64,000 nt of DNA from Abditibacteriaceae bacterium (GTDB lineage Bacteria; Armatimonadota; Abditibacteriia; Abditibacteriales; Abditibacteriaceae). Below, one piece after another: positions 9,050-45,940 of the stretch (within the stretch, counting starts at the first letter, position 1; each line of letters opens with the position of its first letter). The stretch covers positions 190,583 to 254,582 of the forward strand of contig JAFAZH010000022.1 of the NCBI GenBank assembly GCA_019239895.1, given 5' to 3'. The position numbers and the translations under genes are program-made. Under the pieces are notes generated by a model, which saw nothing but the letters and a program-made list of their open reading frames with translations, searched no databases and was not told the DNA's origin.

Positions 9050-11332
9050 ATGATTGCAGTCAGGATGGTTGGGCTGATCGCTACCCTCATAGGTGCCATC
9101 ATCTGCTGGGTGATGAGCAGTCGCCAGAACTATGGCGGGCACCGTGGGCAGCAGGGCTGGCTTTTATTAGCTTTAGGCTTGATCTGTCGCAGTGTCAATG
9201 ATGGTCTTGCCATTTACGCGGCACTCCACACCAAGCCACCGCTTACCGGCTCGCTGAAAAGCTTAGTCGCTCTGGCTACAGGTGGTTACTCCCTGGCCCT
9301 GCAATCCCTGCTGCTCTGTGCTGGCTTTGCGCTGTTGGCCCTGTCCTTTTTCCAGAGCACGCATCCTCCCCAGAGTAGTGGGGAGGCCACAGAAATCGAG
9401 CGACTGAGAAATGAAGTCGCACGCCGCACCCATCAACTTTCTTCCCTGCACGCGATTACAGCCGATCTGAATAATACCCTGGATGGAGCACACGTTCTCA
9501 GCACGGGCCTGGAGCGCATGACCGAATCGGTGCAGGCGGATGCTGGCGCTATCTGGGTGCGCATTGATTTTGTGGGGCTGACAGAAACTGGGGACGCGGC
9601 TAAAGACGATGGGCCAGGCAGCATTATCAATAGCGATTCTCTGTTGCGTGAAATCGAGCGTAGCGAATCGGAGCGCAGCATCTTAGACCGCATTAAGGCG
9701 GAAGCGGCGGGCACTGCGCACGCGGCTGGGGCACAAAAGACCGCTTCTAATGCCAACTCGCGGATGTGGCGCTTAGTCGCGGCAAGGGGTGACGAAAACC
9801 CCATCCAGGCGAATGCGCTCAGCACCATGCGTGACGCTTTAGAAAACGGCGGCATGGCTTACTGCACCGAACTTTGCCGCGACCATAGCGACACCCTCGG
9901 AGTTCCCAATGGAGCGACCCACATTGTCCCCATACGCTGGAAAGGTGAGGAAATGGGGGCCGTGGGCATCGTGCGCTTGCGCGGCTTGCTGGAACCCGAT
10001 GAGCGTGAACTGCTAGATGCTTTAGCCCTCGAAGTCGGCGCAGCTTTGCAAAATGCCCAACTCTATCAGGAAGCGGTGCGCCTGGCGGATCGAGATGGCT
10101 TGACTGACTTGCTCAATCACCGGGTCATTCAACAACAACTCAGCGTCAACCTGGCCCGCGCGCAACGCTCCTCCAGCGACTTAGCGGTCATTATCATGGA
10201 CATGAAGAACTTCAAGTTCTTCAACGACACTTATGGCCATCAGGTCGGCGACAGGGTACTCCAAACCGTGTCACGCTGCTTACGCGACGCGTGCCGGGTC
10301 ACTGATATTTTGGGGCGCTACGGCGGCGACGAATTCATTGCCCTGCTACCCGATACCGATATTCAGGGCACCATAACCGTTTGCTCGCGCATTGCGGCAC
10401 GGGTCGAGAAAGAAGGTTACCAGCAAGCGAATGATGGCCGCCGTATCCCCATTGCCCTGTCGTTTGGGGCCGCCTTTTTTCCACAAGATGGCGACTCGGC
10501 CCTGGAACTGTTAGCAGCGGCGAATTCCAACCTGGAAGAAGCCAAGAACGCCAACGCGCCGCTCCTCGTGCAGCGCACTCCGGTGGAAGAAGCGCAGGAG
10601 TTGCGCCGCCTGAAAGATGCCAGTGTGGGCGGCGCTTTCGGCGTCTTGGATGCCCTGGTGACAGCGATTGATAACAAAGACCACTATACCCGCCGCCACA
10701 GCGAAGACGTGACCCACTGGGCCACTTTAATGGCGCGTGAGCTTGATTTCTCGGAGGAAACGCAGCGTGCCGTCCGTATCGCTGGTCTGCTGCACGATGT
10801 GGGAAAAATTGCCGTCCCGGATTCCGTTTTGCGCAAACCAGGCCGTTTAAATGACGACGAATTCAACATCATGCAGCAGCACCCCGTGTTCGGGGCACTG
10901 ATTGTCAAAGACGTGCCAAATTTGGAAGAAGTGTTAGGCGGTATTCGCCATCACCATGAGCGTTATGATGGTAAAGGCTACCCCGATAAGCTCAAGGGCG
11001 AAACAATCCCCATGATGGGTCGCCTGTTGGCCGTCCCCGACTGCTTTTCCGCCATGACAACTGAGCGTCCCTATCGCAAAGCCCTCAGTTGGCACGAAGC
11101 CACCAGCGAAATTGAGCGCGGCAAAAGCACCCAATTCGACCCGGTTATGGCCAATGCTTTTCTGGCGGTCATTGCTCGTCTCCTCGAAGAGCAAAAATCC
11201 CAGCAAACCCTCTTAGGCCCGTCTGGACAGGAACTTAACGGCGATGGAACCGCCGCCCTTACCCCCAGCGATGGTGCCCTGACTACGCCGACTGTTCGCC
11301 CCCGCTCCGTCACTGATGCCGAGACAACGTAA
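9050..11332 (+). CDS. Membrane-anchored GAF-GGDEF-HD-GYP signalling protein (c-di-GMP cyclase/phosphodiesterase)
   Basis: 760 aa. N-terminal TM helices, GGDEF active-site motif (RYGGDEF), HD-GYP motifs (HD...HHERYDGKGYP). Confidence 0.85.
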   Translation: MIAVRMVGLIATLIGAIICWVMSSRQNYGGHRGQQGWLLLALGLICRSVNDGLAIYAALHTKPPLTGSLKSLVALATGGYSLALQSLLLCAGFALLALSFFQSTHPPQSSGEATEIERLRNEVARRTHQLSSLHAITADLNNTLDGAHVLSTGLERMTESVQADAGAIWVRIDFVGLTETGDAAKDDGPGSIINSDSLLREIERSESERSILDRIKAEAAGTAHAAGAQKTASNANSRMWRLVAARGDENPIQANALSTMRDALENGGMAYCTELCRDHSDTLGVPNGATHIVPIRWKGEEMGAVGIVRLRGLLEPDERELLDALALEVGAALQNAQLYQEAVRLADRDGLTDLLNHRVIQQQLSVNLARAQRSSSDLAVIIMDMKNFKFFNDTYGHQVGDRVLQTVSRCLRDACRVTDILGRYGGDEFIALLPDTDIQGTITVCSRIAARVEKEGYQQANDGRRIPIALSFGAAFFPQDGDSALELLAAANSNLEEAKNANAPLLVQRTPVEEAQELRRLKDASVGGAFGVLDALVTAIDNKDHYTRRHSEDVTHWATLMARELDFSEETQRAVRIAGLLHDVGKIAVPDSVLRKPGRLNDDEFNIMQQHPVFGALIVKDVPNLEEVLGGIRHHHERYDGKGYPDKLKGETIPMMGRLLAVPDCFSAMTTERPYRKALSWHEATSEIERGKSTQFDPVMANAFLAVIARLLEEQKSQQTLLGPSGQELNGDGTAALTPSDGALTTPTVRPRSVTDAETT

Positions 11333-36763: not shown

Positions 36764-38308
36764 TCAGGTGCCGGAGGTAAAACCTAATGCTCCCGCAAAA
36801 GCGGCACGGCGACGCTTAACAAAAGTCGCTGGAGAAGTAAAGCCTTCGCCGGTATGACCAGCCAGACTCATCGCCAGAAAGCCTTCACCGTTGATACCCT
36901 CGGCAGCCGAAGAGGAACCATTGGCAACGAAGACCGTGCATTGGTAAGCGTTGCGCACCGCAGTAATGCGCATGATGTCTTTGCTATGGATGACTAAAGT
37001 ATGGCCTCGTCCAGCTTCGGCTTTAAGCGCGACTTCCAGAGCTTCGTTAAAATCGCGTGCCCGGACTAATGGCATCACTGGCATCAATTGCTCTTCCACA
37101 ACCAGGTCGTGATTGGCAGGCACTTCTAAGAGGGCGACTTTAGTGCTGGCGGGCGCATTGACCCCGATACGTTGCAGAATGCGCGCGGCATCCCAGCCAA
37201 TGGGTTCTTTATTAATGTGCCCATCTTGCACCACATAATCGGCCAGGCGGCGGGCTTCCTCGCCTTGCACTAAGTAGGCTCCTGCTTCTTTCATCGCGGC
37301 AATCAGGGCGTCCGCTTTTTCCTGCACCACGACCGTCACCTTTTCGCCAATGCACAGCAGATTGTTGTCGAAAGAAGCGCCATTCACAATCGAGCGAGCC
37401 GCGTTGGGAATATCAGCCGTTTCATCTACAATCGCCGGGGGATTGCCTGGCCCGGCACAGACGGCCTTCTTGCCGACAGCCAAAGCCGCTTTGACGACGG
37501 CGGGGCCACCTGTGGCATTGATTAACCGCACAACCGGGTGCTTCATGGTGGCTTCAGCCGATTCAATGGTGGGGTTAGCCACGGACGTAAACATATTGGC
37601 CGGGCCACCATGCGAGGTAATCGCCTCATTCATCAAAGCCATAGTGGTGAGCGTACACTTCTTAGCCGAAGGATGTGGACAAATCACGGCTGAGTTACCC
37701 GCTACGGCAAAGATAATGGCGTTGTTAATGAGGCCAGAAGTTGGATTCGTGACCGGCGTGATACCGCAGATGACACCATAAGGAAAGTAATCATCAATGG
37801 TCAGGCCAAAGTCGCCGAGGTAAGTCTGTAACGGCAGCATCTCGAAGCCGGGTGTCTTTTCAGCACATAAGCGATTCTTGACTTCTTTATCCGCTACCCG
37901 GCCTAATCCGGTTTCTTCAACCGCCATCTGTGCCAAACGCAAGGCGTTATCACAGGCGCGTCGCCGCATCGCTTCGACACACTGTTTGCGTCGCTCCAAA
38001 GGCATCTTGACCCAGGCCCGTTGTGCAGTCTGAGCCGCGCCAACAGCTTCTTCCACCGTGGCGAAGACACCATGCAGTGCCAGCAACTCGGCGGGATTGC
38101 CCTGCGGATGCGCGGCGGCAGGCCGATTCTGAGGATCATCAATGCGCCCCCCGCCCCGTGCCGAAGGCCCGCCATAAGCGCCAGGCGACTGATTGAGATT
38201 ATTCCCAGAAATCGCACCCGCGCCGTTGCCACTCCCATTACTGCCCAGGGACAGGCTATCTAACACGCCACGCACAATATCTTCAATTTGCTGCTCGTTA
38301 ATCTGCAT
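36764..38308 (-). CDS. CoA-acylating aldehyde dehydrogenase (EutE/PduP-like BMC core enzyme) with N-terminal encapsulation peptide and a Gly/Ser/Asn-rich linker
   Basis: 514 aa. The N-terminal amphipathic helix MQINEQQIEDIVRGVLDSL is followed by a roughly 70-aa low-complexity linker. The ALDH catalytic region includes LLCIGEKV, containing the catalytic Cys. Confidence 0.9.
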   Translation of the reverse strand: MQINEQQIEDIVRGVLDSLSLGSNGSGNGAGAISGNNLNQSPGAYGGPSARGGGRIDDPQNRPAAAHPQGNPAELLALHGVFATVEEAVGAAQTAQRAWVKMPLERRKQCVEAMRRRACDNALRLAQMAVEETGLGRVADKEVKNRLCAEKTPGFEMLPLQTYLGDFGLTIDDYFPYGVICGITPVTNPTSGLINNAIIFAVAGNSAVICPHPSAKKCTLTTMALMNEAITSHGGPANMFTSVANPTIESAEATMKHPVVRLINATGGPAVVKAALAVGKKAVCAGPGNPPAIVDETADIPNAARSIVNGASFDNNLLCIGEKVTVVVQEKADALIAAMKEAGAYLVQGEEARRLADYVVQDGHINKEPIGWDAARILQRIGVNAPASTKVALLEVPANHDLVVEEQLMPVMPLVRARDFNEALEVALKAEAGRGHTLVIHSKDIMRITAVRNAYQCTVFVANGSSSAAEGINGEGFLAMSLAGHTGEGFTSPATFVKRRRAAFAGALGFTSGT

Positions 38309-38326
38309 AATTCACTTCCTAGTTTG

Positions 38327-38462
38327 GAACCACCGATAAACACGGATGGACACAGATGAGAAAGAGGATCGAGGATAGAAGATTGAGGATCGCAATTTAC
38401 GTATCCAGTATCTTGTATCCAGCATCCTAATTATCTGTGTCTATCTGTGTTCATCGGTGGTT
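38327..38462. repeat. Composite hairpin element E1. Outer arms: aaccaccgataaacacggatggacacagatga / atctgtgtctatctgtgttcatcggtggtt. Inner segment: gaggatcgaggatagaagattgaggatcg.
   Basis: Read directly. It lies between the stop of the 276-aa gene and the start of the aldehyde dehydrogenase gene. Confidence 0.6.
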
Positions 38463-38467
38463 AATTC

Positions 38468-39298
38468 TTATTGAATATCTAAGCCTAATTCACGGGCACG
38501 GTCGCGGGCTAAAGGTGTAATTAAGGCTCCAGCCGGTAATTGTAAAGGTTGGCCCTTACGGGCAAGCTGATCAATGTCCTGCGCCGTGATAAGTTGCTTT
38601 TTACCGTTGCCTGCTGGCTTTACAGCCCCCCCACCATTGAGGGCATTGGACTGTGTTCCAAAACGGGCTGTAATGATTGGGACAAGCTGCGTGGCAGGAA
38701 CAATTTCAAAACCATAGCTCGCTAGGGCGCGGCGATGACCTTCAAACATGCGCTTGAGCAGCGGGCTACGTGTTTTCAGGGCTTCATCATAAGGCGCGTG
38801 TAAGGCCGCAATGAGGGGCTTGCCCAACGCGATGGCAGAAAGGGCTGTTCGCGCTACGGGTTCATCAAAGATACCTAGGGCCATTTTCGCCGCATCGTCA
38901 TCACCGACAGCGGGCAAGAGTACAACATCATGTTCGGCAATCAGCCTTTCACGGGGAACTCGCTGCTTCAGTTCGTCTTCGGCGGGTTGAGTAATCTCGA
39001 AATGGGCGGCGTGTAAAGCATCTAAAGCAGTTCGGGCCTGGTCGTTTAAACATTCTTCACAGCACACCGCGACTAAAATACGACCCGCCACCTCCACGCC
39101 CTCAATGGCCGTGCCACGCCCCAACTGCACCGCGTTACCAATTTTAACCGAACCAGGCTGTCGCATTAAGGAGTTAGGGGCAAGGCCGTCTTGCTGACGC
39201 GTTGAAGATCCGTTGACTCGCACACCGCGTTCCTGCAAAAGACGCAGCACAACTTGGCTGATGATTTCCTCTAAATTTTGCAATTCGTTTCCACTCAC
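38468..39298 (-). CDS. BMC-associated protein of unknown function with N-terminal encapsulation-peptide-like helix
   Basis: 276 aa. N-terminus ELQNLEEIISQVVLRLLQERG, then a Q/S-rich linker. A CC-EEC cysteine cluster. The C-terminal repeat LITAQDIDQLARKG...LITPLARDRARELGLDI. No family recognised. Confidence 0.55.
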   Translation of the reverse strand: MSGNELQNLEEIISQVVLRLLQERGVRVNGSSTRQQDGLAPNSLMRQPGSVKIGNAVQLGRGTAIEGVEVAGRILVAVCCEECLNDQARTALDALHAAHFEITQPAEDELKQRVPRERLIAEHDVVLLPAVGDDDAAKMALGIFDEPVARTALSAIALGKPLIAALHAPYDEALKTRSPLLKRMFEGHRRALASYGFEIVPATQLVPIITARFGTQSNALNGGGAVKPAGNGKKQLITAQDIDQLARKGQPLQLPAGALITPLARDRARELGLDIQ

Positions 39299-39597
39299 GC
39301 GACTCGGCTCCGTCCGGTATTTCCCCGCGCCATTACGTCCACAGAATCTATAATGCCAACAATTAAGGTGCGCACCGGAATGCGTTTCATGCCTAACATA
39401 TCCTGGGCCGCTTTGCCCTCTTCAACCAATAGCACTAAATCGCCCTCGCCTGCCCCCACCGTATCTATCGCTGGGTGAGTGCGGCCATTTGGTTTCAGGT
39501 GTTCATCCACTGGCTGTACCACCATCAATTTCGTATTGGCATAAGCCGGGTGTTTGATGACGCCTTCAACATTTCCTATGACGCGCCCCAGTTTCAT
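39295..39597 (-). CDS. BMC vertex (pentamer) protein, EutN/PduN/CcmL family (BMC-P 1)
   Basis: 100 aa. MKLGRVIGNVEGV ... AIDTVGAGEGDLVLLVEEG ... IVGIIDSV. Confidence 0.85.
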   Translation of the reverse strand: MKLGRVIGNVEGVIKHPAYANTKLMVVQPVDEHLKPNGRTHPAIDTVGAGEGDLVLLVEEGKAAQDMLGMKRIPVRTLIVGIIDSVDVMARGNTGRSRVA

Positions 39598-39882
39598 CTA
39601 ATGTTCCTTAGCCGATGCAGCATTGGCTCGTACGTTATCTACAATGCCAACGATAGAGGCATCTACCGGGGGACGCTGCTCCCAGGCCAGGGGCGCTTCC
39701 CCGGAAGTTTCATACCACACGAACTCACCCGCTCCGACACCAATCGCATCAGCGGCAATCATTTGCGCCCCGGCTGGCTGCCCGCTATGGTCACACCCCT
39801 GCACAATCAGCAAGGGGATATTTTCTAATTTCGGGTCTTTGATGGTGCAGACCACACGCCCGATAATTTTCCCAAAGTCCAT
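39598..39882 (-). CDS. BMC vertex protein, EutN/CcmL family (BMC-P 2)
   Basis: Start taken at the ATG of MDFGKIIGRVVCT; the upstream in-frame start in the ORF track is GTG. Motifs DAIGVGAGEFV and IVGIVDNV. Confidence 0.85.
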   Translation of the reverse strand: MDFGKIIGRVVCTIKDPKLENIPLLIVQGCDHSGQPAGAQMIAADAIGVGAGEFVWYETSGEAPLAWEQRPPVDASIVGIVDNVRANAASAKEH

Positions 39883-39895
39883 AGCTTGTTTATTC

Positions 39896-40029
39896 ACCAC
39901 AAAGACACAAAGAGCACAAAGGGACGACTAAAATAGGGAATTGTGAATTTAACAATCTCTGACTATTCTTGATCTTCTATTTGCAAGCCTCTGTCCCTAA
40001 AACCTTTGTGCCCTTCGTGTCTTTGTGGG
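39896..40029. repeat. Composite hairpin element E2 (arms accacaaagacacaaagagcacaaaggg / cctttgtgcccttcgtgtctttgtggg)
   Basis: Read directly. It lies between the BMC-P3 stop and the BMC-P2 start. Confidence 0.6.
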
Positions 40030-40038
40030 AATCTAACC

Positions 40039-40323
40039 TCAGATATTCACTCGTTTGCCATCGCACTCGACTGAATCCACGATGCCGATGACCGAAGAAT
40101 CTACTGGCACTTGCTCAGCACGGTTGGCCAGGCGCGCGGAAGAACCAGCCACGGTGAGAACGGTTTCGCCAATACCCGCCCCGACGGTATCTATCGCCAC
40201 CACATAGGTATCGGTCAGGCTACCGTCCATCTTCATCTCGCGCACGAGCAGCAGTTTCCAGCCGACCAGTTTAGGGTCTTTCTGCGTTGCGACCACGGTG
40301 CCGACCACTTTGCCAAGTCTCAT
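40039..40323 (-). CDS. BMC vertex protein, EutN/CcmL family (BMC-P 3)
   Basis: 94 aa. MRLGKVVGTVVAT ... AIDTVGAGIGETVL ... IGIVDSVE. Confidence 0.85.
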   Translation of the reverse strand: MRLGKVVGTVVATQKDPKLVGWKLLLVREMKMDGSLTDTYVVAIDTVGAGIGETVLTVAGSSARLANRAEQVPVDSSVIGIVDSVECDGKRVNI

Positions 40324-40332
40324 GATAAGTTA

Positions 40333-40423
40333 GGTTATAGGTGATGGGTTATAGGTGATAGGTAATAATTGACCTATGAACAATGATAAGCGCAAATTCC
40401 TTTGGCCTATCACCTATAACCCC
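40333..40423. repeat. Hairpin element E3 made of degenerate ttataggtga tandem repeats (ggttataggtgatgggttataggtgataggtaa ... cctatcacctataaccc)
   Basis: Read directly. It lies between the PduL stop and the BMC-P3 start. Confidence 0.5.
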
Positions 40424-40425
40424 TG

Positions 40426-41208
40426 TCATTTACAAATCCGGCAGATGCCAGCGCGTGGGGAAAGCACTAAAGCTTTCGCGCCGGGTTGCACGCCAGCGGC
40501 ATTGCCTTCATCGGTATCAATATGCATCTCAGCTTTAAAGGCTGGATCGGTGCGAATTAAGACATTGTAGAACACTAAGCCTTGATCCCCTGCCGGAATT
40601 TCAACCGGAATTTCATCGCCATCTTTGACACCGAGCAAGCTGGCCTCGTCGGGATGCAGATGCACATGGCGTTTAGCGCGAATCAGCGCATCCGGCAGGT
40701 GAATGCTACCCTGTGGCCCGACTATTGTAATAGGTGAACCTGTGCCATGATTAACCGATTGTAAAATCGGCGGCATCATGCCCAGCGATAAGGCATCGGT
40801 GCGCGAAACTTCAAACTGACTCTTGCTGCGCTCCGGCCCTAAGATACGCACATTGGAAATCGAGCCACGCGGCCCCACAATCTGCACCAGTTGCTCACTG
40901 GCGAACTGCCCTTCTTGATACAGAAACTTAAAGGGCGTCAACCGCTGACCGGGGCCAAAAAGTTGCTCCACATGCTCCGGCGTGAGGTGCCCATGCCGCG
41001 CCGAGATATTGCAGGGAAACCCCTCCTGCGCAATCTGCTCCGGTGAAGGTTGCTGCGCACTCGCTTCAGCCCCAAACGGCGTGGTGGGGCTACCCGGTGT
41101 AAGCCTCGCACTACCATGCCCGTTGCTGCCCACGCCCCCGGCTCCCCCCAATTGAGTTACCACTTCCTGGGTAATCAGCCGCACCAAGTCTTCGTATGAA
41201 ATCTTCAT
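40426..41208 (-). CDS. pduL: Phosphotransacylase PduL (phosphate propanoyl/acyltransferase) with N-terminal encapsulation peptide
   Basis: Start at the ATG of MKISYEDLVRLITQEVVTQL (amphipathic helix plus G-rich linker). Two PduL repeats are present (RHVHLHPDEAS..., HIDTDEGNAAG). Confidence 0.85.
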   Translation of the reverse strand: MKISYEDLVRLITQEVVTQLGGAGGVGSNGHGSARLTPGSPTTPFGAEASAQQPSPEQIAQEGFPCNISARHGHLTPEHVEQLFGPGQRLTPFKFLYQEGQFASEQLVQIVGPRGSISNVRILGPERSKSQFEVSRTDALSLGMMPPILQSVNHGTGSPITIVGPQGSIHLPDALIRAKRHVHLHPDEASLLGVKDGDEIPVEIPAGDQGLVFYNVLIRTDPAFKAEMHIDTDEGNAAGVQPGAKALVLSPRAGICRICK

Positions 41209-41223
41209 AGCAGAACAGGTGGA

Positions 41224-41334
41224 ACTACGAATGAACACGAATCAACACAAATGAAGTAGATACTGGATACTCGATCCTCTATCTTCGATCTTCTATCCTC
41301 TTTTATTTGTGTCCATCTGTGTTCATTCGTGGTT
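41224..41334. repeat. Composite hairpin element E4. Arms: aactacgaatgaacacgaatcaacacaaatga / tcatttgtgtccatctgtgttcattcgtggtt. Inner: ggatactcgatcctctatcttcgatcttctatcctc.
   Basis: Read directly. It lies between the BMC-H stop and the pduL start. Its inner repeats match those of E1 in reverse orientation. Confidence 0.6.
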
Positions 41335-41602
41335 AAAACACTTTTTCAAGATCAGTATGTGGGCGGGGAATGACATGAACACTGACCAGTTCACCCACAC
41401 GCTGAGCGGCGGCGCTACCGGCATCGGTGGCTGCTTTCACAGCGCCTACATCGCCTGCGACCATGACGGTGACTAAACCGCCGCCGATGCTCTGCTTGCC
41501 CAGCAATTCCACATTGGCCGCTTTGACCATTGCGTCGGCGGCTTCAATCGCGCCGACTAAACCTTTTGTTTCCACTAAACCTAACGCTTCTCCGTTTGCC
41601 AT
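41333..41602 (-). CDS. BMC shell hexamer protein (BMC-H, PduA/EutM family)
   Basis: 89 aa. [29 protein letters not shown] ... [13 protein letters not shown]. Confidence 0.9.
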
Positions 41603-41663
41603 TGTACTCTCCTATTTTTCATCGAACGTCTCTTAATTCAATTTATTTGTCTCTGCCTAAAGC

Positions 41664-42080
41664 TTAACGGCGTCCGCGCTGACTGGTAGCACGCTCCGCA
41701 GGCTCGCCGTCGTTGGCACTGTCCTGTCCCGCGGGCAAGCCCTTGCCGGGGCCGCTGCCATTGAGGGCGCCGATGTAGTGACCAAAAGCGCGCGGCGATT
41801 TACCATGACCCTTGGGCAAAATCTTTTCTAAGTCCGCGTGTGGCCGTGCAATAACGTGGGCCGAAATCACTTCACCCACGCGACGTGCAGCAGCGGCTCC
41901 GGCATCAACAGCCGCCGTCACTGCGCCCACATCGCCACGCACCGTCACTGTGACTAAAGCCGACCCTACCTGGTCATAACCTTCCAGTTGCACGTTGGCC
42001 GACTTTGCCATCGCATCGGCGGCTTCAATCAGGGCGATTAAGCCCTTCGTTTCCACAAGTCCTAAAGCTTCTCCCGGCAT
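41664..42080 (-). CDS. BMC shell hexamer protein (BMC-H) with ~45-aa C-terminal Gly/Pro-rich extension
   Basis: 138 aa. [29 protein letters not shown] ... [13 protein letters not shown], then a low-complexity tail. Confidence 0.9.
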
Positions 42081-42141
42081 AATCTCTCCTTGTCCTCTGT
42101 TTCCAGGGCATTACTGATTCTTCAAATTCGTATAGCTGCGT

Positions 42142-43059
42142 TCACTTTTGTAAGCTTTCAGCTACTCGACGGGCTACCTCGCCTATGATGCGGCGCAGTT
42201 CTTCTTCACCGATCTCAATCTCGGCTGGCTTGCCATTGCTACCATTGGCCGCGTTATTCGATTGAGCCGATGGACGCGCATTGGCATTATCATCGCTGGC
42301 CCCGGCATAAGCTGCCGCTCCAAAGCCGGTGCGCGGCACATCCGGCGCGTAGTTCACGTTCTTGTCTTTGTCTTTATATTCTATGCGGCAACTGCCCCCG
42401 GCTTGCACTCCATAACGCGCTCGCGCTTCCATGAGTTCTTGTGCCCGTTCTGGCGAGAACACATTTTCTGAACCAAGCTGGCGGGCGACCAGGGAAATCT
42501 TGGCGAAGTGCTCAACGGTTTCCATCTTGTAGTAGGCATTCATCACCGTCTGCCCGATAGTAACCACGCCATGATTGGCTAACAAGAATGCATCGTATTC
42601 CTGCACATAATTGTCGAGAATGTCCTGGGTCAACTCATCGCTGCCAGGGACACCGTACTTCGCCAACGGCACACTGCCGAGGGTAATCACCACTTCTGGC
42701 AAGGTGCAACGATCAAGGCTGAGACCCGCCACCGCAAAACCGGTCGCCGTCAGAGGATGGGCATGGCACACGGCGCGCACATCGGGCCGGGCATCATAAA
42801 AGGCGCGATGCATCTTCAGTTCGCTGGAGGGTTTCATGGTACCGCGCAGCTTATTGCCCGCTCGGTCAATGACCACCAGCATATCAGGCGTCAGAAACCC
42901 CTTCGAGACACCAGTCGGAGTGGCCAGAATCTCATTCGCGTTTAGCCGCACGGAAATGTTGCCATCGTTGGCCGCCACATATTCACGATGCCAGATACGG
43001 CGGCCAATCTCGCAAATCTCTTCGCGCATAGTGCGTTCATTAAAAGTTTGTTCTGCCAT
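42142..43059 (-). CDS. Class II aldolase/adducin-family aldolase (fuculose/rhamnulose-1-phosphate aldolase-like) with C-terminal encapsulation peptide
   Basis: 305 aa. Metal-binding His motifs (CHAHPLTATGFA, LANHGVVTIG). C-terminal extension with Gly/Asn linker plus the amphipathic helix EEELRRIIGEVARRVAESL. Confidence 0.85.
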   Translation of the reverse strand: MAEQTFNERTMREEICEIGRRIWHREYVAANDGNISVRLNANEILATPTGVSKGFLTPDMLVVIDRAGNKLRGTMKPSSELKMHRAFYDARPDVRAVCHAHPLTATGFAVAGLSLDRCTLPEVVITLGSVPLAKYGVPGSDELTQDILDNYVQEYDAFLLANHGVVTIGQTVMNAYYKMETVEHFAKISLVARQLGSENVFSPERAQELMEARARYGVQAGGSCRIEYKDKDKNVNYAPDVPRTGFGAAAYAGASDDNANARPSAQSNNAANGSNGKPAEIEIGEEELRRIIGEVARRVAESLQK

Positions 43060-43080
43060 AAAATTATCCGTAAATACCGT

Positions 43081-43935
43081 TTAGGCTTGCGCCACAATAA
43101 TCTGCACTTCAGCCCGTTGCAAGGCCGCCTCAATTTCAGCCGGAGGCGTTGCATCCGTTACCAGCACATCAATCTTTGCCCAATCGGCTACAAAAACCAT
43201 ATCGCGCCGCTGGAATTTCGCCGCATCCAACAGCAGGGCCACGCGATTCGCCCGCACCATCAATTCGCGCTGCCCTTCGACTTCCCAATGGTTAGAATCG
43301 TAAAACCCTTCTGCATCCGCACCACCGGCCCCAATTAACAACCAATCGCCAGCGCGCACATGATCGAGCGTCTGCTTGAGGTGAGGGCCAATTAAGATGT
43401 CGTGCTTGGGGTAGACCATGCCACCCGTCACCAACACATCCACACCCAGGGTTTCGCCCAATAAAGATGCTGCCGGTAGGGAGTTGGTCACTACGGAAAC
43501 ACGTCGCTGGCGCAGATGCTTCGCCGCCGCATAGCAGGTCGTGCCGCCCGCTAAGAGCACATTTTGCCCGTCCTCAATTAAAGCCGCCGCCGCTTCACCA
43601 ATGCGCGCTTTAGAGGTGGCGCGTAATTCGGCCCGTTGCGAGAAAGAAGTTACGTGGTCCAGCGTATCAACTGGAGAAACTGCTACTTCAGTTAAGCCCA
43701 CCACAGAGCCATTGGGTGATTTACTCTTGCCATTAGCGGATGCGGAGGAATAGCCATGCGAGCTAATAGCCCCGCCTCGCGTGCGCTGGAGCCGCCCGGT
43801 GCGATGCAGTTCTTCGAGGTCACGGCGCACGGTTGCATCGGAGACATGAAGCTGACGAGCCAAGGCTTTGACCTCCAAAAACGGCTGGCGGGCCAAGGCA
43901 TCTTCAATTTTGCTAAACCGATGAGCGCGGAGCAT
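43081..43935 (-). CDS. DeoR/GlpR-family transcriptional regulator
   Basis: 284 aa. N-terminal HTH (LARQLHVSDATVRRDLEELHRTGRLQRTRGGA) and a DeoR C-terminal sugar-phosphate-binding domain. Confidence 0.8.
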   Translation of the reverse strand: MLRAHRFSKIEDALARQPFLEVKALARQLHVSDATVRRDLEELHRTGRLQRTRGGAISSHGYSSASANGKSKSPNGSVVGLTEVAVSPVDTLDHVTSFSQRAELRATSKARIGEAAAALIEDGQNVLLAGGTTCYAAAKHLRQRRVSVVTNSLPAASLLGETLGVDVLVTGGMVYPKHDILIGPHLKQTLDHVRAGDWLLIGAGGADAEGFYDSNHWEVEGQRELMVRANRVALLLDAAKFQRRDMVFVADWAKIDVLVTDATPPAEIEAALQRAEVQIIVAQA

Positions 43936-44146: not shown

Positions 44147-45121
44147 TTACAAAGTCACAGGCTTACCAGTTTTAGCCGATTGATTCGCGGCTAAGGTCAC
44201 TTTAAGAGTTTTCAAAGCATCGGTATAGTTGCTCTTAATGCCCAACCGCTTGCCGGTCTTAACCGCTTTGATAAAGGCGCGGTCTTCGTCGAGATAGGGG
44301 TTGTTGCGGTGCTGATAAGTATTGGTCTCGCCGCTTTGACGGATAGTGAGGGTATTGCCACGCAGTTCATAAATGGCATCGCGCACCATGAGGTCGAGAC
44401 CTGTCTCACCCACGCCGCCTAACAGGGCTGCTGTAGAGATGTAGCCGATAGCACCACTGTCAAACTCCACCGTCAGGGCGGTCACGTCCGGTACGGTAGT
44501 ACCTTCATACACTTTGCCCATCTCGCGCAAGGCGGCACAACAATAGACTTTTTTAATATCGCCAATGAGATAACGGGCTAAATCCACAATGTGGGTGCAT
44601 TGTTCCACAAGCTGACCACCACTTTGATCCATGCGCCGCCACCAGGCGACTCCTGGAAACCCGCCCAGCCAGCGGCCATAGGCCATAGCAACCAGGGGCG
44701 CATTTTTAGCGTCCAGTAATTTTTGGGTGCGATCCGTGGCCTCGTGGTAGCGGAAGTGATAGCCAACCGCCGTGGTCACGCCCGCATCTTCGATGGCAGC
44801 AGCGATTTTTTCGGCAGTCTTCATATTATTGGAGAGGGGCTTCTCCACGAAGAGGGCGCATCCTTTTTGCGCAGCCAGGATTTCGGCATTTGTGTGCGCG
44901 TGGGGGGGCAGACAGATGTAGACGGCATCGAGAGTTTCGGCTTCCAACATTTTGCGCGGGTCGTCGTAGGCTTTGCCTTCAAAGCGGCGCGCGGCGGCTT
45001 CGGCACGGTCGGTCGCCACGTCACTAAAAGCGACCAACTGGGCATCGTTAATCTGCGAGAGTGTGTTGAAGTGGGCACCGGCAATGCCACCGGCCCCCAC
45101 AAATCCTATGCGTACTGGCAA
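44147..45121 (-). CDS. Gfo/Idh/MocA-family NAD(P)-dependent oxidoreductase
   Basis: 324 aa. Rossmann N-terminus MPVRIGFVGAGGIAGAHF and the EKP motif (FVEKPL). Confidence 0.85.
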   Translation of the reverse strand: MPVRIGFVGAGGIAGAHFNTLSQINDAQLVAFSDVATDRAEAAARRFEGKAYDDPRKMLEAETLDAVYICLPPHAHTNAEILAAQKGCALFVEKPLSNNMKTAEKIAAAIEDAGVTTAVGYHFRYHEATDRTQKLLDAKNAPLVAMAYGRWLGGFPGVAWWRRMDQSGGQLVEQCTHIVDLARYLIGDIKKVYCCAALREMGKVYEGTTVPDVTALTVEFDSGAIGYISTAALLGGVGETGLDLMVRDAIYELRGNTLTIRQSGETNTYQHRNNPYLDEDRAFIKAVKTGKRLGIKSNYTDALKTLKVTLAANQSAKTGKPVTL

Positions 45122-45499: not shown

Positions 45500-45940
45500 A
45501 TGGGTACGAGGTTGTATGTTGGCAATTTGAGCTATAGCGTGGACAACCAGGCATTGGAAGAGTTGTTCGCGCAGTATGGCACGGTGAACAGCGCGGAGGT
45601 CATCAGCGAGCATGGCTCCGGGCGCAGCAAGGGATTTGGATTTGTGGAGATGGACTCAGACGAAGCAGCTCAAGCCGCCATCACAGCTCTCCATGACAAG
45701 GAGTTTCAAGGTCGTCCTCTAACCGTCAATGAAGCCCGACCACGCGAAGAGCGTAGCGGTGGTCGCGGTGGCGGTGGTGGTCGCGGTGGTTATGGCGGCG
45801 GTGGTGGTCGCGGTGGTGGCGGTGGCTACGGCGGTGGCGGCGGCTACGGTGGCGGTGGTGGCTACGGTGGCGGTGGCGGTCGTGGCGGTGGCGGCGGTGG
45901 ACGCGGCGGTAGCGGCGGCAATCGCCGGGAACGCTACTAA
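45500..45940 (+). CDS. RRM-type RNA-binding protein with Gly/Arg/Tyr-rich C-terminal tail
   Basis: 146 aa. RNP-2 LYVGNL, RNP-1 KGFGFVEM, then GGRGGYGGGGG repeats. Confidence 0.85.
   Translation: MGTRLYVGNLSYSVDNQALEELFAQYGTVNSAEVISEHGSGRSKGFGFVEMDSDEAAQAAITALHDKEFQGRPLTVNEARPREERSGGRGGGGGRGGYGGGGGRGGGGGYGGGGGYGGGGGYGGGGGRGGGGGGRGGSGGNRRERY

Follow-up and report, generated by a model that had tools for sequence, protein, structure and literature searches.

The 64,000-nucleotide stretch analysed here, called the window below, comes from an Abditibacteriaceae bacterium of the Armatimonadota (assembly GCA_019239895.1, contig JAFAZH010000022.1) and carries a bacterial microcompartment (BMC) operon of the PVM type. 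Embedded in this operon, between genes for BMC-P vertex proteins and a gene for an aldehyde dehydrogenase (AldDH), is a gene for a 276-amino-acid (aa) protein that we refer to as PvmL-like. The protein has three conserved modules: an N-terminal encapsulation peptide (EP), a core with the HFCD (Flavoprotein) fold, and a C-terminal module that is homologous to the N-terminus of EutQ. We suggest, at a probability of roughly 55%, that it is a multivalent adaptor that connects shell and cargo on the luminal side of the microcompartment.

As we picture it, the C-terminal module of ~40 aa would dock on the hexameric shell protein BMC-H, and the N-terminal EP helix would co-assemble with the EP helices of the class II aldolase, PduL and AldDH. 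Two flexible linkers of variable length would provide reach. The HFCD-fold core probably oligomerises, as trimeric HFCD proteins do, so that each particle would display several copies of both handles. The principle would follow that of the EutQ N-terminal domain. The strongest single argument for such an adaptor comes from proteins in other BMC loci that have an EP, a linker and the module but no domain besides. Because these core-less proteins exist, the two handles alone apparently form a functional unit.

Three modules with a EutQ-like terminus

The open reading frame (ORF) begins with a GTG and overlaps by 4 nt (GTGA) with the BMC-P gene before it, which ends in TGA; this arrangement is typical of translational coupling. 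Among 5.8 billion searched proteins we found 50 homologues with identities of 36-100%, all labelled 'hypothetical' and without a precomputed Pfam domain; the 100% identical match belongs to an Abditibacteriaceae (Armatimonadota) metagenome-assembled genome. The gene order DeoR, class II aldolase, BMC-H, BMC-H, PduL, three BMC-P genes, the PvmL-like gene and AldDH is unchanged in seven loci of Abditibacteriaceae/Abditibacteriia, two of them on metagenome contigs and five in species-representative genomes. Given the 50 homologues, the same synteny in seven independent loci and a confidently predicted fold, the ORF is a real gene and not a chance reading frame.

The anatomy of the protein was read from an alignment of 31 family members and from an AlphaFold2 model with a mean predicted local distance difference test (pLDDT) score of 84. 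Three conserved modules alternate with two variable, disordered linkers (Table 1). The strings quoted in an earlier note, made from the sequence alone, are all present in the protein: ELQNLEEIISQVVLRLLQERG (residues 5-25), VAVCCEEC (76-83), LITAQDIDQLARKG (236-249) and LITPLARDRARELG (259-272). The note also likened the N-terminus to the targeting peptides of AldDH and PduL, and this likeness holds. The N-terminal helix is amphipathic, with a hydrophobic moment (muH) of 0.53 that lies at the 97.7th percentile of windows in the protein, and the terminal helices of AldDH (N-terminal), PduL (N-terminal) and the aldolase (C-terminal) have similarly high moments. Its hydrophobic register (L9, L/I12, I13, 16, V17, V20 and L21) is conserved in the family. 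The linker that follows ranges from ~15 to >150 residues across homologues. A terminal amphipathic helix, a poorly conserved linker and a folded domain, all in a protein of a BMC locus, are the features by which an EP is defined.

Structure comparison of the AlphaFold2 model places residues 71-215 in the Flavoprotein (HFCD) fold, and the top structural matches are HFCD flavoproteins at 13-19% sequence identity. The 276-aa protein is unmatched by Pfam PF02441 at E ≤ 0.1; its relatives P0097 and L008 do match this model. Among NCBIfam models, TIGR02536 ('ethanolamine utilization protein', a hypothetical equivalog) weakly matches the C-terminal half (23.8 bits, E 2.9e-5, with a curated cutoff of 152.6 bits that is not reached). 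Residues 179-275 align to positions 111-204 of the 207 in this profile, which is matched by all 31 family members (best E 9e-13). Searches of PHROGs and of PDB sequences with the 276-aa protein gave noise only, and a PDB profile search returned nothing beyond sub-significant alignments to DpaB and TvaF, which served only for locating motif positions. The earlier note could assign the remainder of the protein to no family. This does not stand: by its fold the core belongs with the HFCD/Flavoprotein domains, it is remotely homologous to TIGR02536, and a protein of this kind, PvmL, is already in the Kerfeld catalog.

When 1.84 billion cluster representatives were searched exhaustively with a profile, 1800 relatives were recovered, 346 of them at E ≤ 1e-10. 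Only 8 clusters lie at E ≤ 1e-30, so the close family is small and sits within a large superfamily of ~250-270-aa proteins. Superfamily relatives are annotated as 'flavoprotein' or 'ethanolamine utilization protein' and have precomputed PF02441 matches. A canonical relative, P0133, can be aligned from end to end, with the EP (hhalign probability 98.4%, E 4e-15), and has the same layout of EP, core and module. Two natural fusions link the core physically to microcompartment parts: P0159 (477 aa) joins PduL to a flavoprotein-like core and the module, and P0207 (358 aa) joins BMC-P (PF03319) to PF02441. For the proteins that occupy the same slot in PVM-like loci, the alignment is confined to the module in three (L036-L038); in a Polyangia protein (L035) it also takes in the latter half of the core.

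The homology of the C-terminal module to EutQ was seen in several comparisons. The N-terminus of E. coli EutQ reads VKKLITANDIREAHARGEQAMSVVLRASIITPEAREVADLLGFTI, and the segment KKQLITAQDIDQLARKGQPLQLPAGALITPLARDRARELGLDI of the PvmL-like protein is 43% identical to E. coli EutQ residues 2-45 (BLASTP E 6e-6). The family profile aligns to EutQ residues 2-46 (hhalign E 1.8e-5), the last 42 residues match positions 2-45 of the NCBIfam EutQ profile NF012001, and 16 of the 31 family members match the EutQ N-terminus. The EutQ cupin (PF06249) has no Pfam match in the protein. The earlier note had excluded EutQ, which is correct for the cupin and incorrect for the C-terminal 'LIT...' segment, a homologue of the N-terminal shell-binding helices of EutQ. 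It had also described this segment as duplicated. Its halves can be aligned in register (ITaqDI..A..G versus ITPLARDrAreLG), but a half-versus-half profile comparison is weak (hhalign P = 0.009 over 19 columns, probability 4%). We therefore set aside a true internal duplication and treat the segment as one ~40-aa module with a pseudo-repeat of two beta-alpha units, which the EutQ N-terminal region also shows. No Pfam model covers the module. The only Pfam match of the protein, E3_binding at residues 259-275 (22.5 bits, below the gathering score), was discarded as a short helix-motif resemblance, and the stretch is explained by the EutQ-like module.

What this terminus may do is suggested by work on the enteric protein. 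In Salmonella, targeting requires EutQ residues 1-99, and these residues suffice for it (Yang et al. 2025, Sci Adv, PMC12487888). Shell binding falls to helices H1/H2 (residues 9-41), and the EPs of EutC and EutE are bound by H3/H4. When EutQ or its N-terminus is missing, cargo and shells come apart; EutQ is itself encapsulated and links the two (PMC12487888). EutQ without residues 1-100 no longer binds EutM, and EutM residues K53, D57 and Q64 are needed for the contact in vitro (Held et al. 2016, Sci Rep, PMC4827028). In an alignment, BMC-H2 of the operon shares 76% identity with E. coli EutM and has each of these three residues; BMC-H1 keeps D57 only. On this sequence comparison, BMC-H2 is the likely docking partner of the C-terminal module.

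The same contact can be read from the other side of the shell. Held et al. placed it at the cytosol-facing helix of EutM and reported effects on compartment number (PMC4827028), and the conservation of the EutM contact residues in BMC-H2 would fit with a factor on the outer shell that positions compartments, controls their number or nucleates them, as first proposed for EutQ and PduV. We hold this to be very unlikely, given that EutQ was shown to be encapsulated and to link shell with cargo (Yang et al. 2025, PMC12487888), that the PvmL-like protein carries a canonical N-terminal EP like those of the three lumen enzymes of the operon, and that the Kerfeld catalog treats the PvmL N-terminus as an EP. 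The suggestion in the earlier note that the protein is lumen cargo or interacts with the shell agrees with our view of a dedicated microcompartment component that is probably in contact with the shell.

The module itself is not confined to EutQ and flavoprotein-like proteins. A scan of 185,579 species genomes found it in 43 loci; with two metagenome loci added, BMC-H or BMC-P genes lie within ≤10 kb of the module in 41 of 45. In each of the four loci without nearby shell genes the module is fused to RpiB, and one of these loci lies on a contig of 1.6 kb. Its carriers are EutQ-type cupins, LacAB_rpiB isomerases, a lactate/malate dehydrogenase (LDH/MDH), a Cob_adeno_trans protein, SnoaL-like proteins, flavoprotein-like cores and ~165-aa proteins of unassigned type. 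The module is thus a BMC-specific mobile tag on at least six enzyme families. Fusions at either the N- or the C-terminus occur in BMC loci of Chloroflexota, Proteobacteria, Actinomycetota, Bacillota and others (Table 1). It may be a general, domain-type targeting signal distinct from the classical EP, and useful both for predicting BMC content and for encapsulation engineering.

The core-less proteins mentioned above are 130-160 aa long, match no Pfam domain and have just three parts: an EP helix at the N-terminus, a linker, and the module at the C-terminus. Their genes adjoin those for AldDH and BMC-H in loci of Alphaproteobacteria and Actinomycetota. We regard them as candidate pure shell-cargo tethers.

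Several points weigh against the adaptor proposal. The EutQ homology of the module spans ~44 residues at an hhalign probability of 78%. No equivalent of EutQ H3/H4 was found by hhalign, as the match stops at residue 46 and residues 62-99 are unaligned; lacking these EP-binding helices, the protein would need EP-EP association for cargo contact, which is itself conjectural. According to Yang et al., EutQ sits where EutM and EutL meet (PMC12487888), but the operon has no EutL-like BMC-T. The probable orthology with PvmL draws on fold, EP, operon type and position and not on the PvmL sequence. Finally, the loops of the core pocket are the most conserved part of the protein, and this points to a ligand or catalytic role that a pure adaptor leaves unexplained.

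A remodelled pocket in the flavoprotein core

In HFCD flavoproteins such as EpiD and AtHAL3a, the flavin-phosphate loops comprise a Gly/Ser/Thr-rich loop after beta1 and a PASANT-type loop, (S/T)xN(T/S), after beta4. We read the corresponding pocket loops, at the C-terminal edge of the sheet, in the alignment of all retrieved proteins. A motif census shows that the superfamily mostly has (F/L)TGG(T/S)xG after beta1 and P(V/T)LTQN(T/S)AAK after beta4, which we take to resemble the HFCD flavin-phosphate loops. The subfamily of the PvmL-like protein uniformly has VCCx(E/D)C and LPxxGDDDAAKMAxGIFDEP at these positions. In the protein itself, CCEEC and GDDD stand where relatives carry TGG(T/S)xG and TQN(T/S), and the HFCD flavin-phosphate loop motifs are absent. 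With these loops replaced by CCxEC and GDDD, the pocket probably binds something other than flavin mononucleotide (FMN) in the canonical way. Judged from the motifs, canonical FMN binding seems unlikely, and a metal site, an iron-sulfur (Fe-S) centre, a dithiol or a protein interface would be possible.

The pocket shows no sign of decay. Residues 128-147 are the most conserved stretch, with an entropy of 0.60 bits as against 1.61 for the rest of the core. Within the subfamily no part of the protein is under stronger constraint than the two loops, which have 0.6-0.9 bits, compared with 1.6 for the rest of the core. We conclude from this that the pocket is functional. One subclade changes both loops jointly, to CCDGC with PAxCYD(L/M), by which a fourth Cys is gained and acidic residues are lost. 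The cysteine cluster singled out in the earlier note is well conserved, with C79 and C80 at ≥90% and C83 invariant, and one family member, P0050, is without C79 and C80. In NuoB/PSST, a protein of flavodoxin-like fold, a tandem 'CCxxE' after beta1 serves to bind a 4Fe-4S cluster.

The strong constraint on these loops, the correlated subclade change that would be expected of a shared ligand site, and a CxxC motif (C80-x-x-C83) at a helix N-terminus all favour a reading in which the protein is a luminal redox or cofactor enzyme. It would bind flavin non-canonically, or a metal or Fe-S centre via C79/C80/C83 and D133-135, and would re-oxidise the NADH of AldDH or relay electrons to the shell, with the terminal modules merely encapsulating it. 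Gene content is also consistent with such a need. Pfam searches, extended to the large ORFs around the operon, revealed no alcohol dehydrogenase (Fe-ADH), MNdh/PduS or BMC-T in the operon or its surroundings, and neither the acetate kinase (PvmG) nor the Ldh-type dehydrogenase (PvmO) of the canonical PVM set is near the operon. NAD+ regeneration has been described as unresolved for loci that lack both systems, and BMC-associated PF02441 proteins were suggested as electron carriers that might accept electrons there (PMC11626177).

Other observations speak against this enzyme role, and we consider it unlikely. The FMN-type motifs TGG(T/S) and TQNT are replaced, and three aspartates at the phosphate site disfavour FMN. 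No NAD(P)-binding motif or domain was found in the 276-aa protein by Pfam, P0050 dispenses with two of the three cysteines, and minimal EP-plus-module proteins without any core occur in other BMC types. A more specific version, which we think distinctly improbable, is that the flavin pocket has been rebuilt as a Cys3/Asp(Glu) metal, Fe-S or CxxC dithiol site, making the protein a redox module, tethered to the shell, for NAD+ regeneration or electron transfer across the shell. Should that be so, it would be a third, hitherto unrecognised cofactor-recycling solution for BMCs without alcohol dehydrogenase and without the MNdh/BMC-T(SE) pair. The conserved Cys/Asp pocket offers a defined mutational target for NAD+ recycling in loci without alcohol dehydrogenase or MNdh. 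As matters stand, a redox or NAD-recycling role is possible, if unsupported.

Phosphoryl transfer, the other function that the earlier note had floated, can be set aside. The acetate-kinase activity of EutQ is located in its cupin domain (PMC12487888). This domain is absent from the PvmL-like protein, which has only the non-catalytic N-terminal module of EutQ, so a phosphoryl-transfer or acetate-kinase role is unsupported and we reject it.

We likewise reject, on motifs, context and score, the idea that the protein is a classical HFCD enzyme that works in coenzyme A or cofactor biosynthesis (a cysteine or phosphopantothenoylcysteine decarboxylase, a UbiX-type prenyltransferase or a DpaB-like subunit) and lies in the operon by chance. 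HFCD enzymes are the top structural matches, and some family members have faint NCBIfam matches to DpaB, CoaBC and AfpA. However, identity to the structural matches is low and the flavin-site motifs are replaced. There is no PF02441 match in the protein itself, and no match to a curated family lies above threshold. The EP, the EutQ-like module and the strict BMC synteny are foreign to housekeeping HFCD enzymes, and we give this explanation next to no weight.

The operon and its surroundings

A full PVM-type operon (window 36764-43935) is present in this Abditibacteriaceae genome. In the 2021 catalog, PVM loci were restricted to Planctomycetes and Verrucomicrobia (PMC8217296). The signature enzyme is a class II aldolase, and EutB, EutC and EutA are all missing from the window. 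The coordinates of the operon genes and of the parts of the PvmL-like protein are collected in Table 1.

Table 1. Features of the PvmL-like protein, its operon and related loci; coordinates refer to the window and residues to the PvmL-like protein
Feature	Position or locus	Strand	Basis
PvmL-like gene, 276 aa	38468..39298	-	ORF list, homologues, synteny
N-terminal amphipathic EP helix, residues 3-24	39227..39292	-	AlphaFold helix 3-23, pLDDT 85-93; conserved register
Linker 1, variable, disordered, residues 25-70	39089..39226	-	pLDDT 42-64
HFCD / Flavoprotein (PF02441)-fold core, residues 71-215	38654..39088	-	alpha/beta, pLDDT ~96
CCEEC, beta1-alpha1 loop, residues 79-83	39050..39064	-	Codons TGC TGT GAA GAA TGT; motif census
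Second pocket loop LPAVGDDDAAKMALGIFDEP, residues 128-147, including D133-D135	38858..38917	-	Motif census; entropy; hidden Markov model alignment to DpaB, TvaF
Linker 2, variable, residues 216-232	38603..38653	-	pLDDT 47-71; entropy 2.82 bits, family maximum
C-terminal beta-alpha-beta-alpha module, residues 233-276, candidate shell-binding domain	38471..38602	-	pLDDT ~90; EutQ homology
AldDH, N-terminal EP, directly downstream of PvmL-like gene	36764..38308	-	Pfam PF00171; EP analysis
Three BMC-P (EutN/CcmL) vertex genes, directly upstream of PvmL-like gene	39295-39597, 39598-39900, 40039-40323	-	Pfam PF03319
PduL-type phosphotransacylase, N-terminal EP	40426..41238	-	Pfam PF06130; EP analysis
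BMC-H2	41333..41602	-	Pfam PF00936
BMC-H1 with ~50-aa C-terminal extension	41664..42080	-	Pfam PF00936; alignment
Class II aldolase (signature enzyme), C-terminal EP	42142..43059	-	Pfam PF00596; EP analysis
DeoR-family regulator at head of operon	43081..43935	-	Pfam PF08220 + PF00455
Module-fusion loci	L010, L012, L013, L015-L017, L020, L021, L024, L028, L031, L033, L040, L043		
Minimal EP + linker + module proteins	L019, L023, L025, L030, L032, L039, L042; ~position 10000 in most		

Some details of the neighbouring genes deserve mention. The C-terminal extension of BMC-H1 (window 41664-41810), rich in Gly, Pro and charged residues, is missing in BMC-H2 and EutM. The listed PduL ORF begins at a GTG (MFIRSSTCSAMKISYEDL..., window 41206-41238), and its homologues align only from residue 10-11; the true start is therefore probably an ATG that gives MKISYEDLVRLITQEVV, with the EP then right at the N-terminal end. 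Sister loci have an additional gene of ~238 aa with a CorA-like C-terminal membrane segment (L001, 8203-8919). Gaps between PduL and the first BMC-P gene also occur in L003, L004, L006 and L007, and the window has a hairpin-bearing spacer of ~100 bp there.

Three intergenic spacers (38328-38462, 39897-40028 and 40333-40422) each contain a long imperfect inverted repeat, and their sequences differ. The repeat between the PvmL-like gene and AldDH has a folding energy of -68.7 kcal/mol (z = -8.7 against shuffles). They could act in the processing or stability of the mRNA and so adjust the stoichiometry of shell and enzymes, or they could be REP/MITE-like insertions.

Directly upstream of DeoR is a GFO/IDH/MocA-family NAD(P) oxidoreductase without an EP (window 44147-45121), and L003 has a 68% identical counterpart in the corresponding position. 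This oxidoreductase may be a cytosolic sugar dehydrogenase that supplies the pathway. The other large ORFs that flank the operon are functionally unrelated. Just past the locus (window 45500-45940) lies a gene for an RRM-type protein with a long glycine-rich (GGY/GGR)n tail, which has no relation to the PvmL-like protein.

Comparison with known systems

Proteins of the flavoprotein type that bear an EP and are encoded in a PVM operon are an already known kind, if a functionally uncharacterised one. The table of hidden Markov models (HMMs) in the Kerfeld catalog lists PF02441 'Flavoprotein' with the PVM homologue PvmL (PMC8217296; Sutter et al. 2021, Supplementary Data 5 and 6). The other PVM genes of the catalog are PvmB (phosphotransacylase), PvmD/E (BMC-H), PvmH/K/M (BMC-P), PvmJ (AldDH), PvmN (aldolase), PvmG (acetate kinase) and PvmO (Ldh). 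Its EP library includes an 'HMM02441_01.PVM' built from 59 sequences, with the consensus '...sldselIerIVrEVLrRLra' (PMC8217296). Compared by eye, this consensus and the helix of our family have a common hydrophobic register of i, +3, +1, +3, +1, +3. The supplement further notes PF02441 flavoproteins that adjoin BMC-H in FRAG6/7, as well as extensions described as 'EutQ-like' at the N-termini of BMC-associated LDH/MDH (MIC1/2) and of a small SPU6 protein, which were read as possible ligand binders (PMC8217296). We found no discussion of PvmL in the searchable literature, and TIGR02536 is scarcely mentioned there.

Few uncharacterised components of BMC operons are as widespread as the flavoprotein-type genes (PvmL, TIGR02536 and the 'flavoprotein' of EUT2, GRM3 and FRAG loci), whose products have an EP at one terminus and the EutQ-type shell-binding module at the opposite one. 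An adaptor role would extend the Salmonella EutQ mechanism to PVM-type and many other compartments. To the catalog entry our analysis adds the link to the EutQ shell-binding module, the mobility of this module across BMC enzymes, and the remodelled pocket.

The closest counterpart is PvmL itself, and we infer from fold, EP, operon type and position that the 276-aa protein is its Armatimonadota counterpart. Both occur in an operon with a class II aldolase, PduL, AldDH, two BMC-H genes and a BMC-P triplet; in both, the gene lies among the BMC-P genes and next to AldDH, and the product has the Flavoprotein fold and a terminal EP with the same hydrophobic register. The protein described here differs in that it escapes the PF02441 model, belongs to an Armatimonadota host and has CCxEC and GDDD at the pocket. 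Searches seeded with P0097 and P0127, which have PvmL-like EPs, reached proteins of Clostridia, Sporomusa and Desulfotomaculales.

The TIGR02536 proteins of EUT2 loci in Firmicutes are remote homologues that share the flavoprotein-like core and the C-terminal EutQ-like module, and the P0133-type relatives also have an N-terminal EP. They keep TGG(T/S)xG and TQN(T/S)AAK and match PF02441, whereas the PvmL-like protein scores far under the TIGR02536 cutoff and belongs to an operon that is not of the ethanolamine type. A Listeria TIGR02536 protein is predicted to form a trimer that stacks on the EutL trimer, according to a 2026 atlas of predicted complexes (PMC13181095). Resemblance to HFCD flavoproteins (EpiD, MrsD, TvaF, PPC decarboxylase/CoaC, DpaB, AfpA/DmrB and UbiX) is one of fold: unlike them, the PvmL-like protein has replaced flavin-site loops, no recognisable equivalents of the catalytic motifs, and BMC-specific terminal modules.

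With EutQ the correspondence is between residues 233-276 and the shell-binding N-terminal H1/H2 region. The module is C-terminal here and N-terminal in EutQ, and the PvmL-like protein has neither H3/H4 nor the cupin/acetate-kinase domain, but an EP of its own. The PduM C-terminus is weakly similar to the module in relatives (the distant relatives P0063 and P0186 match it at E 6e-6 to 3e-3), and one of the 31 members of the family itself matches the PduM models (TIGR04493 / NF011957 / PF15953), at E 0.077. CcmN, CsoS2 and the PduB N-terminus have no sequence relationship to the protein. What these linkers and PduM have in common with the role proposed here is a shell-binding end, a cargo-binding end, flexible linkers and multivalency, and a comparison with the shell-cargo linkers of other microcompartments has likewise been drawn for EutQ (PMC12487888).

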